From: a virus
Taxonomy: Duplodnaviria; Heunggongvirae; Uroviricota; Caudoviricetes
IMG/VR virus record: IMGVR_UViG_2897352509_000015
Length of the DNA stretch: 13,586 bases
Direction: 5' to 3' (one strand)
Shown: one piece after another, positions 6,001 to 9,000 of the stretch
How positions within the stretch are numbered: position 1 is the first letter of the stretch
Layout: each line of letters opens with the position of its first letter
Program-made: the position numbers

Positions 6001-9000
6001 GCTGGTAAATGACTGGTATCCCACAGCAAGTATCAGCGATTTGCTGGTTGTGGTGATGAAGAAAGCCACCGCAGGCATCAGTATCAGCTGAATTTTATAA
6101 CCCATATACGGGCGCCAGAAATGGCGCCTTTTTTATTGCAGAAAAGCGAGAGGTAATTATGCGTAAACTTTATGCCGCCATTTTGTCCGCAGCCATCTGT
6201 CTGGCCGTATCCGGCGCGCCTGCATGGGCGTCTGAGCAGCAGGCCACGCTGAGCGCGGGGTATCTTCATGCCCGGACGAGCGCTCCCGGTAGCGATAATC
6301 TTAACGGGATTAACGTGAAATACCGTTATGAGTTTACGGACACACTGGGGATGGTGACGTCATTCAGCTATGCAGGAGACAGGAATCGCCAGCTTACCCG
6401 TTACAGCGATACCCGCTGGCATGAAGATTCCGTGCGTAACCGCTGGTTCAGCGTGATGGCGGGGCCCTCTGTGCGCGTGAATGAATGGTTCAGCGCGTAT
6501 GCGATGGCGGGTGTGGCTTACAGCCGTGTGTCGACTTTCTCCGGGGATTATCTCCGCGTAACTGACAACAAGGGGAAAACGCATGATGTGCTGACCGGAA
6601 GTGATGACGGTCGCCACAGCAACACGTCTCTGGCGTGGGGAGCTGGCGTGCAGTTTAACCCGACCGAATCCGTGGCCATTGATATTGCTTATGAAGGCTC
6701 CGGCAGTGGCGACTGGCGCACTGACGGCTTCATCGTGGGTGTCGGCTATAAATTCTGATTAGCCAGGTAACACAGTGTTATGACAGCCCGCCGGTTCAGG
6801 CGGGCTTTTTTGTGGGGTGAATATGGCAGTAAAGATTTCAGGTGTACTGAAAGACGGCACAGGAAAACCGGTAGAGAACTGCACCATTCAACTGAAAGCC
6901 AGACGGACCAGCAGCACGGTGGTGGTGAACACGGTGGCCTCTGAAAATCCGGATGAAGCCGGTCGTTACAGCATGGACGTTGAGTACGGTCAGTACAGCG
7001 TCATTCTGTTGGTGGAAGGATTCCCGCCGTCACATGCCGGGACCATCACCGTGTATGAAGATTCTCAACCCGGTACGCTGAATGATTTTCTCGGTGCCAT
7101 GTCGGAGGATGACGTCCGGCCGGAGGCACTGCGTCGTTTTGAACTGATGGTGGAAGAAGCGGCGCGTCACGCTGAGGAGGCGAAGAAGAATGCCGGAGAG
7201 GCGGAGACGTCCGCGAGGAATGCCGGCATATCAGCCAGTCAGGCAGAAGAGAACGCTGCAAATGCTGACACTTCAGCAGGGGATGCATCGGAGTCAGCCC
7301 GGCAGGCGGCAGAAAGTGCAGCCGCTGCAAAGCAGTCAGAGGAGGCGTCCTCGTCCTCGGCCTCTGCGGCCGCTCAAAAAGCCAGTGAGTCATCACAAAG
7401 TGCAGCAGAAGCTGAATTGTCAAGAAAGACGGCAGAAAGTGCAGCCGGTAATGCATCCAGGGATGCAACGACCGCAGCAGAAAAAGCCCGGGAGTCAGCA
7501 GAAAGCGCACAGTCAGCGGAACAAAGCAGGATAGCGGCGGAAGAAGCCGTAAACAGAATCCCCACCGTGGTGGGACCTCCCGGGCCAAAGGGGGAACAGG
7601 GGCCCGCGGGTCCTCAGGGGCCGAAGGGTGATAAGGGAGAGCGCGGTGACACCGGCCCTGTCGGGGCAACCGGCGAACGGGGACCGGCAGGTGATGCTGG
7701 TCCGGCAGGCCCGCAGGGGCCGAAAGGTGACAGGGGAGAGCGGGGAGAGACCGGTCTGACGGGAAATGCAGGTCCACAGGGTCCAAAGGGAGATACCGGT
7801 GCGGCAGGCCCGGCAGGCCCACAGGGACCGAAAGGAGAAACAGGTGCGACTGGCCCGGTGGGGGCAACCGGACCTCAGGGACCGAAGGGCGACCCGGGGG
7901 AGACACAAATCCGTTTTCGTCTGGGGCCGGGAAACATTATTGAGACAAACAGCAATGGCTGGTTCCCGGATACAGATGGCGCACTCATCACCGGACTGAC
8001 CTTTCTTGCCCCCAAAGATGCCACACGGGTTCAGGTTTTTTTTCAGCATTTGCAGGTCAGGTTTGGTGACGGGCCGTGGCAGGATGTTAAGGGGCTGGAT
8101 GAAGTGGGCAGTGATACAGGCAGAACAGGAGAATGACATGAACATATTAAAAAAAATTATGCAGCGTCTGTGCGGTTGCGGAAAGCATGATGACTGTGAA
8201 CACGGGCAGTCGCTTACAGTACAACTGCGACTGGGGCCGGCAGACATCCTGGAGTCAGATGAGAATGGCATTATCCCGGAGCAGGTCAGGGTAATCACGC
8301 AGGTGGTGATACTGGATGCGGATAAAAAGCAGATACAGTGTGTGGTAAGACCGCTGCAAATCCTGCGTGCTGACGGGACGTGGGAAAATATTGGCGGGAT
8401 GAAGTAACCCGACAGCTTCACAAAACCGGAGTCCGGCTCCGGTTTTTGTTGTCATGTCCGGTGGATGTTTGTTAATGAAGACTTGAGGGAATATTTATCC
8501 GTATGAAGGAGCATGGTAATGCCTGGATTAATATCATATGTGTCATCGGCTTCATTCGTGAATGAGATGATGGAGCTGCGTCAGCAGGTAATGGAGGGGC
8601 AGATTGGTGGATTTCTCCTGGGAGGGGAGAGGGTTAGAGTTTCTTATATGCCAGATACAGGCCGTTTTTTAGCAGAAAGTGAAGGGCAGGGACGGGTTTA
8701 TGCAGAATTATTGAATATTGCTTTTAATGATGGAGTTAATGTGCTCAGAAACAGGATATTAAGTGCGCTCCCTGGAATGGGAGGGCGAAACTCTTTGCAG
8801 GAAAAAATATCGGAGTGTGCCTTTACTGTCGATATTGAAAAACTTCAGTGTCCTGGTGATGCGCTTCAATGTCCAATTACACTGGAGCAGCCTGAAAAAG
8901 GTGTTTTTGTGAAGAATTCAGATGGTTCAGATGTATGTACTTTATTTGATGCCGCTGCATTTTCTCGTTTGACTGGTGAAGACTTACCCCACCCACTGAC

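Follow-up and report, generated by a model that had tools for sequence, protein, structure and literature searches.

A very probable EPclA-type collagen-like side tail fibre gene in an effector-carrying lambdoid prophage remnant

A gene for a collagen-like protein was studied at positions 6823-8136, on the forward strand, of a 13,586 nt stretch of viral DNA (Caudoviricetes; IMG/VR record IMGVR_UViG_2897352509_000015), the whole of which is referred to here as the window. This gene very probably encodes EPclA (enterohaemorrhagic Escherichia coli (EHEC) prophage collagen-like protein A). In the lambda-like, Stx-type prophages of EHEC, this is the standard side tail fibre subunit of the collagen-like type. 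The family, which includes ECs2717 and Z0982, was defined by Ghosh et al. (2012, PLoS One 7:e37872; PMC3368898) as having the architecture PfN-PCoil-Col-PfC, and all of the sequence features that define it are found here: the PfN and PCoil regions, a single uninterrupted collagen domain, the PfC domain, and a position after J and lom in a lambdoid prophage. A previous sequence-only reading had described a chimeric side tail fibre with the attachment end of lambda Stf. As an evolutionary statement 'chimeric' is, judging by the sequence, correct; the fibre is not, however, a one-off chimera, as EPclA is the commonest collagen-like fibre architecture in EHEC prophages. Hence the feature is one already known in detail, and nothing in that earlier interpretation of it is new.

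Domain architecture of the fibre protein

The open reading frame (ORF) consists of 437 codons and a stop codon, with no internal stops; both the protein length and all of the coordinates previously assigned to its parts proved accurate. A GTG codon two codons upstream of the ATG at 6823 offers an alternative 439 aa product; the RefSeq start is the ATG, and the protein is labelled there as a prophage tail fiber N-terminal domain-containing protein. Three Pfam domains score over their curated cut-offs: PF08400, PF01391 and PF06820.

The PfN collar, or tail-attachment, domain comprises aa 1-93 (6823-7101), with the PF08400 match covering the full profile and reaching aa 133 (aa 1-133, E = 6.3e-69). 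Over aa 1-117 the fibre is 89% identical to the same residues of lambda orf-401, the N-terminal part of Stf, which both bears out and slightly lengthens the match of around 110 residues seen originally; no significant similarity to orf-401 was found by protein comparison past residue 117. The assignment of a lambda Stf-type attachment end is further strengthened by the match of aa 1-93 to chain Ta of PDB entry 9e7m (E = 2.1e-51), the 94-residue 'tail fiber protein' chain that represents the Stf collar of Ur-lambda. This structure comes from a 2025 cryo-electron microscopy study, in which gpStfN (residues 1-91) is the collar domain touching gpV and gpM; three such collar domains, sitting on flexible linkers, make these contacts, and within Stf a flexible linker of around ten residues is followed by a trimeric coiled coil from residue 102 (PMC12617516). 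When 5,426 complete E. coli genomes were surveyed with lom and the fibre gene as the query, most matches ended at window positions 7172-7244, corresponding to codons 117-141, which places the exchange point within the initial heptads of the coiled coil common to both types of fibre.

The PCoil region (aa 101-246; 7123-7560) is rich in Ala, Ser and Glu, which account for 45, 24 and 22 of the 138 residues between aa 109 and 246 (33%, 17% and 16%; nt 7147-7560). This stretch had been noted as a low-complexity coiled segment, although its register was missed: read in sevens from residue 101, a single unbroken pattern, xxAxxAx, runs through all 21 heptads. The Fourier spectrum has a sharp peak at exactly 3.5 residues, and the lag-7 autocorrelation is pronounced both for Ala (z = 4.9) and for Ala and Ser together (z = 5.5). 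The unbroken register and this periodicity indicate an alanine-core coiled coil, rather than a disordered linker. Among EPclA homologues, the PCoil is shortened by 63 residues, equivalent to nine heptads, in eight representatives and by 41 residues in 13 others (e.g. P0032 and P0037). As 41 is not divisible by seven, the shorter deletion contradicts a generalisation made in PMC3368898.

The collagen domain (aa 251-361; 7573-7905) is recognised by the Pfam Collagen profile PF01391 (E = 3.7e-18). Its longest G-X-Y run, previously put at about 37 triplets, consists of exactly 37, with no interruption; Pro occupies 18 of the 37 X positions, and the run contains 24 charged residues. Given that glycine makes up around 10% of residues, 37 glycines in perfect register are not a product of chance.

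Within the last 76 residues of the protein lies a domain that had been overlooked, the PfC (Phage_fiber_C) knob at aa 363-426 (7909-8100), which matches PF06820 over all 64 profile positions (E = 3.5e-35). A literature search on PF06820 and EPclA returned only PMC3368898 and the papers citing it.

Comparison with EPclA and other fibre proteins

In the O157:H7 strains EDL933 and Sakai, 16 EPclA-type entries have been described, 14 of them exactly 437 aa long with a PCoil of 116 aa and a collagen domain of 111 aa (PMC3368898). The protein studied here has this same architecture and total length, with a PCoil of about 116 aa and a collagen domain of 111 aa, and it lies at the same site, after lom, as in O157:H7 lambdoid prophages; copies carried by phages are 97.7-98.2% identical to it at the protein level. 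It differs in belonging to a dusA-integrated remnant that does not appear in the list of prophages given as Table 2 of PMC3368898, and in having Val rather than the usual Gly at residue 405. Recombinant EPclA is a trimer that dissociates on denaturation; its coiled coil, which melts at 52 C, is trimeric by experiment, and its collagen domain has the circular dichroism signature of collagen and melts at 42 C. PfC acts as a trimerisation module that renucleates the triple helix, whereas PfN alone is monomeric, and rotary-shadowing electron microscopy showed a dumbbell with a hinged stalk (PMC3368898). These values for the trimer, triple helix, coiled coil and PfC trimerisation are those of the literature, obtained with paralogous copies having the same domain lengths, and docking of the collar was measured on lambda Stf; our own analysis of the window's copy covers the identity of its domains, its periodicities, the point at which homology breaks off, its conservation and its genomic context.

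Like lambda Stf, the fibre has a collar domain, a flexible linker and a trimeric coiled coil starting near residue 101, and is encoded after J and lom. Unlike Stf, it has neither the Pf2 repeats, there being no PF03406 match to the protein in Pfam, nor the gp37-like distal domain, and it lacks the accompanying Tfa chaperone gene; instead the shaft of EPclA is a collagen helix and its tip is PfC. At 437 aa, it is also well below the size of the product of the two lambda stf frames (401 aa and 314 aa). Also comparable is EPclB, found in short-tailed Stx phages (Z1483 of 933W and ECs1228 of Sp5), which has PfN, PCoil, collagen and PfC regions followed by the same gene for an 89 aa protein consisting mainly of PfC that is found downstream of the fibre gene here. 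EPclB is nevertheless larger, at 645 aa, with two collagen domains split by a Pf2 repeat, and belongs to podovirus-type tails; it is a tail fibre or spike that has been proposed to bind YaeT/BamA (PMC3368898).

Genomic context and distribution

From left to right, the window contains a 5' fragment of dusA, broken early genes (an exonuclease, a methyltransferase and a DUF2303 gene) and a truncated J; these are followed by lom, the fibre gene, the PfC-only gene, three nleG genes, a fragment of a capsid gene, dinI, a tyrosine integrase and an intact dusA. The window is thus a lambdoid prophage remnant that carries effector genes and occupies the dusA integration site. Of J, just the receptor-binding C-terminal portion is left (5369-6091, +; Ig_GpJ_C, E = 1.7e-38 on the ORF at 5438-6091), and RefSeq marks a pseudogene without an N-terminus at the equivalent position. 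The neighbouring lom gene (6159-6758, +) encodes an outer-membrane beta-barrel of the Ail/Lom type (PF06316, E = 2e-117), and the order J-lom-stf is the same as that in lambda and in the Stx2a prophage NC_049941. On the other side, three tandem genes for type III effectors of the NleG family occupy 8519-10516 (+), matching PF06416 with E = 4.9e-44, 4.1e-47 and 1.2e-43 and annotated as DUF1076 in RefSeq. The region of the capsid gene fragment, dinI and the tyrosine integrase abutting dusA corresponds to 10987-12084 (-) and 12173-13210 (+), downstream of nleG.

The complete Stx2a prophage NC_049941 carries the whole module, J-lom-EPclA-PfC89-nleG, with identical spacing. Matches over at least 80% of the fibre protein, at up to 98.2% identity, were found in 141 phage records, nearly all of them Stx1a-, Stx2a- or Stx2c-converting phages. 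At the DNA level, the 1314 bp gene has 100% matches in at least 30 independently closed O157:H7 genomes and matches of at least 99% identity in 303 records; the segment from lom to nleG is present in 196 complete-genome records at this same threshold, and matches in 202 genomes span at least 80% of the whole 13.6 kb window. Each O157:H7 genome has between 10 and 14 places that match the fibre gene at least partially.

The tail fibre and effector core of the window (5300-10600) is 100% identical to that of O157:H7 TW14359. Differences from this strain, which amount to around 8% in the first 750 bases, are found in the chromosomal flanks and in a portion of the early region (1-1000, 4000-5000 and 12250-13586). 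Identity over the whole window did not exceed 98.7% in any complete E. coli genome, and the best identity of the flanks was 98.5%; judged by these differences, movement of the element between backgrounds, or recombination between them, may have taken place.

Since J is truncated and genes for the head and tail shaft are lacking, the window's fibre cannot decorate a virion of its own element. Most likely, this copy is an intact passenger that would have no function in the remnant itself, acting only in trans for co-resident lambdoid prophages or as a substrate for recombination with them.

Alternative interpretations

Several observations weigh against the identification of this gene as encoding a working tail fibre. 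The role of EPclA in tail fibres was considered by Ghosh et al. to be strongly suggested but not proven (PMC3368898), and experiments have so far neither located EPclA on a virion nor revealed a receptor for it. Codon 405 (8035-8037), in the motif ATRVQ(V)FF, encodes Val where 74 of 75 cluster representatives have Gly, and this allele is fixed in those O157:H7 genomes that carry the dusA-remnant locus; from the alignment, it may be the first sign of relaxed constraint. AlphaFold2 single-chain models of the fibre PfC and of the 89 aa protein have mean predicted local distance difference test scores of just 52.1 and 54.3, respectively, with no residue above 70, and so they provide no structural support for a binding role; a tentative all-beta pattern was all that they displayed. 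Such low confidence could be anticipated when an obligate trimer is modelled from a shallow alignment, and the alignments are shallow because the PfC-only family is narrow (169 proteins). In addition, the fibre gene is separated from lom by a terminator-like hairpin (6785-6806, +); identified by its match to the consensus alone, it has an 8 bp stem with seven G-C pairs and then a T-run (TTTTTGTGGG), implying that transcription of the fibre gene in the lysogen would need read-through or antitermination.

The best surviving alternative is that the window's copy is a decaying, functionless relic, kept intact through the youth of the remnant or through gene conversion from paralogues, from which no useful protein is made. 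Most of J and every other morphogenesis gene are gone from the element, the Gly405 to Val change falls at a near-invariant position of PfC, and the DNA is identical across O157:H7 carriers, so that there is no divergence from which purifying selection could be detected. However, the fibre ORF, the coupled 89 aa partner gene and the terminator are all intact while their neighbours are pseudogenes, and the 10-14 fibre-matching places in each O157:H7 genome represent tails that could potentially use the fibre in trans. We therefore treat decay as a serious possibility that, on balance, we are inclined not to accept; in any case, it concerns only this one copy, and the identity of the gene family is unchanged by it.

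It is very improbable that the protein instead serves the bacterium, for instance as a collagen-mimicking adhesin resembling Scl1 and Scl2 of Streptococcus pyogenes, encoded by a virulence 'moron' beside the nleG effectors. Ghosh et al. left such a possibility open (PMC3368898), the position next to lom and effector genes is that of lysogen-expressed cargo, and there is a weak similarity to the NCBIfam models for Scl2/SclB, Lcl and SclA (E = 7e-22 to 4e-19). These scores, of 69-78 bits, are nonetheless far below the respective cut-offs of 325-500, the similarity being limited to the G-X-Y region; with Scl1/Scl2, the LPXTG adhesins, a score of 77.9 bits compares with a cut-off of 325, and the match does not extend beyond the G-X-Y and helical region. 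Both these proteins and BclA of Bacillus anthracis share with EPclA a G-X-Y triple helix that is unhydroxylated and that is nucleated from a globular trimerisation domain, but they carry signal or anchor sequences and belong to the cell surface or the spore, and their homology to the fibre lies solely in the G-X-Y region. The N-terminus of the window's protein is a phage tail collar domain, and neither a signal peptide nor an anchor; furthermore, the same module is found in the late operon of complete phages, and the reported expression of EPclA is tied to phage induction (PMC3368898).

Length of the collagen tract

The DNA encoding the collagen domain, over which the local G+C content rises as high as 0.70, is only loosely periodic: its best tandem array consists of 2.0 copies of a 45 bp unit with an 82% match, while its direct repeats are 61-80% alike. 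The sequence-only reading had suggested that the length of this tract may vary between strains, which holds for the family as a whole but not for the dusA locus. Among 90%-identity cluster representatives having the same PfN and PfC ends, the number of G-X-Y triplets ranges from fewer than five up to 37, and collagen lengths of 63-144 residues have been reported in the EPclA proteins of other strains (PMC3368898); in complete E. coli genomes, no length variant was found in any of the 196 records matching the lom-to-nleG segment at 99% identity or above. A slippage-prone microsatellite can be rejected on both counts, as the DNA repeats are too degenerate and the near-identical matches do not vary. 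The degeneracy of the repeats would rather fit occasional recombination between motifs encoding GPQGPKG, or between paralogues, than rapid slippage. We give almost no credence to the tract length being an assembly artefact, whether a repeat collapse or expansion, for although G-X-Y tracts are periodic and triplet number does differ among family members, this one is not a clean DNA repeat, the full 1314 bp gene is matched with neither mismatch nor gap in at least 30 independent complete genomes, 111 residues is also the length found in 14 of the 17 collagen-like entries of EDL933 and Sakai, those 14 being EPclA-type (PMC3368898), and the lack of any length variant at the locus makes such an error very unlikely.

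A downstream gene encoding a second PfC domain

Immediately after the fibre gene, at 8138-8407 (+), is a gene for an 89 aa protein that was absent from the earlier description. Its ATG is one base past the TGA stop codon of the fibre gene, with a GGAG motif 8 nt upstream, an arrangement suggesting that the two are probably translationally coupled. The product has a 27-residue leader containing Cys and His, followed by a second PF06820 domain (E = 2.7e-34) that is 32% identical to the PfC of the fibre itself. The ORF is annotated in RefSeq and forms a separate PHROGs family, phrog_576 (E = 2.5e-59); it is present in 296 phage records, including both long-tailed phages with EPclA and short-tailed phages with EPclB (e.g. 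VT2-Sakai and AU5Stx1), and wherever the organism is named for the 169 proteins of the family, it is E. coli, E. albertii or Citrobacter rodentium.

The sequence-only reading had reported that no tfa-like chaperone gene follows the fibre, and a tblastn search with lambda Tfa agrees, finding no homologue in the whole window (best E = 1.2); what it had missed is the PfC-only gene in this place. We tentatively propose that the 89 aa protein might be an obligatory partner of PfC-tipped fibres that replaces Tfa, either templating the C-terminal knob as a chaperone or cap, or itself forming a receptor-binding tip that is alternative or hetero-oligomeric; the coupling, the 32% identity to PfC and the association with both EPclA and EPclB would fit such a role. 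One GenBank record labels the protein 'alternate tail fiber tip', and a literature search found no paper supporting this label.

A remnant of tfa was also looked for and not found. The 26-codon pseudogene that RefSeq labels 'tail assembly protein' (8409-8486, +) has no similarity to lambda Tfa and no NCBIfam match, and it overlaps a hairpin at 8422-8451; it is probably an annotation artefact. A distant DNA search with 8405-8515 matched the same intergenic region of Stx phages, and none of the 30 matches listed had a tail-fibre-assembly annotation. The hairpin, which is followed by a U-run, resembles an intrinsic terminator at the end of the fibre operon (8422-8451, +); it has a minimum free energy of -25.8 kcal/mol (z = -3.2), none of 200 shuffled sequences folds equally well, and its sequence is kept with the module in 297 phage records.

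A programmed frameshift exchanging the fibre PfC cleanly for the downstream one was also considered and rejected, as the downstream frame is open only from 8006, which lies inside the first PfC. Rare 494 aa proteins (P0039 and P0040), found on only one to four contigs, have both PfC domains in tandem and correspond to a 26-triplet EPclA fused to the 89 aa protein, whilst the 92 aa protein P0266 joins the N-terminal half of the 89 aa protein to the C-terminal half of the fibre PfC. These fusions and this hybrid reflect either sequencing indels or recombination between the two copies of PfC.

Antisense open reading frames

The expectation that the fibre gene would contain long antisense ORFs liable to be called by automated annotation was borne out. 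Two such spurious frames are present on the reverse strand: one of 286 aa, rich in Pro, Leu and Arg, at 7046-7906, which is not called by the RefSeq annotation pipeline PGAP, and another of 302 aa at 7513-8421, the exact sequence of which is not in the protein collection. The exact 286 aa product has been deposited in GenBank from EC4115 (ACI36093.1), EDL933 and others, under the names 'conserved hypothetical protein' or 'Phage protein', and belongs to a cluster of 204 sequences.

On the sense strand, 141 of the 253 codons between aa 109 and 261 start with G. When the protein was recoded with random synonymous codons, the antisense open stretch still averaged 192 +/- 53 codons, and the observed 296 codons were reached by 24 of 500 recodings; the other genes of the window have antisense open stretches of 72-194 codons. 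As the recoded protein continues to give long open stretches, the antisense ORFs are a by-product of amino acid composition. In lambda, the antisense orf206b lies inside the Ala/Ser-rich part of stf (orf-401; NC_001416, 20147-20767 (-); L003, 5148-5768), and is of the same composition-driven kind.

A model for fibre assembly and its implications

Taking the gene to be EPclA, three chains would come together as a fibre with the shape of a dumbbell. Trimerisation of the PfC domains at the C-terminus would set the register, from which the 37-triplet collagen helix would zip up; the alanine-core coiled coil of 21 heptads would make another trimeric rod, with a short hinge (PTVV) connecting it to that of collagen. 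At the other end, the three PfN domains would stay separate on flexible linkers and clamp the tail tube and tip, as the collars of lambda Stf do on gpV and gpM. The distal PfC knob would then be the presumed host-binding end, possibly acting together with the 89 aa PfC-only protein.

Little weight attaches to any of this as discovery, since the family, its domain structure, triple helix and length polymorphism were published in 2012 (PMC3368898) and the structure of the collar in 2025 (PMC12617516). For annotators, the practical consequence is that the 286 aa and 302 aa antisense ORFs should be disregarded. Within the module, new biology could now lie only in the 89 aa PfC-only gene, which accompanies every fibre of this kind, and fibres tipped with PfC probably help to set the host range of Stx-converting and effector-carrying phages.

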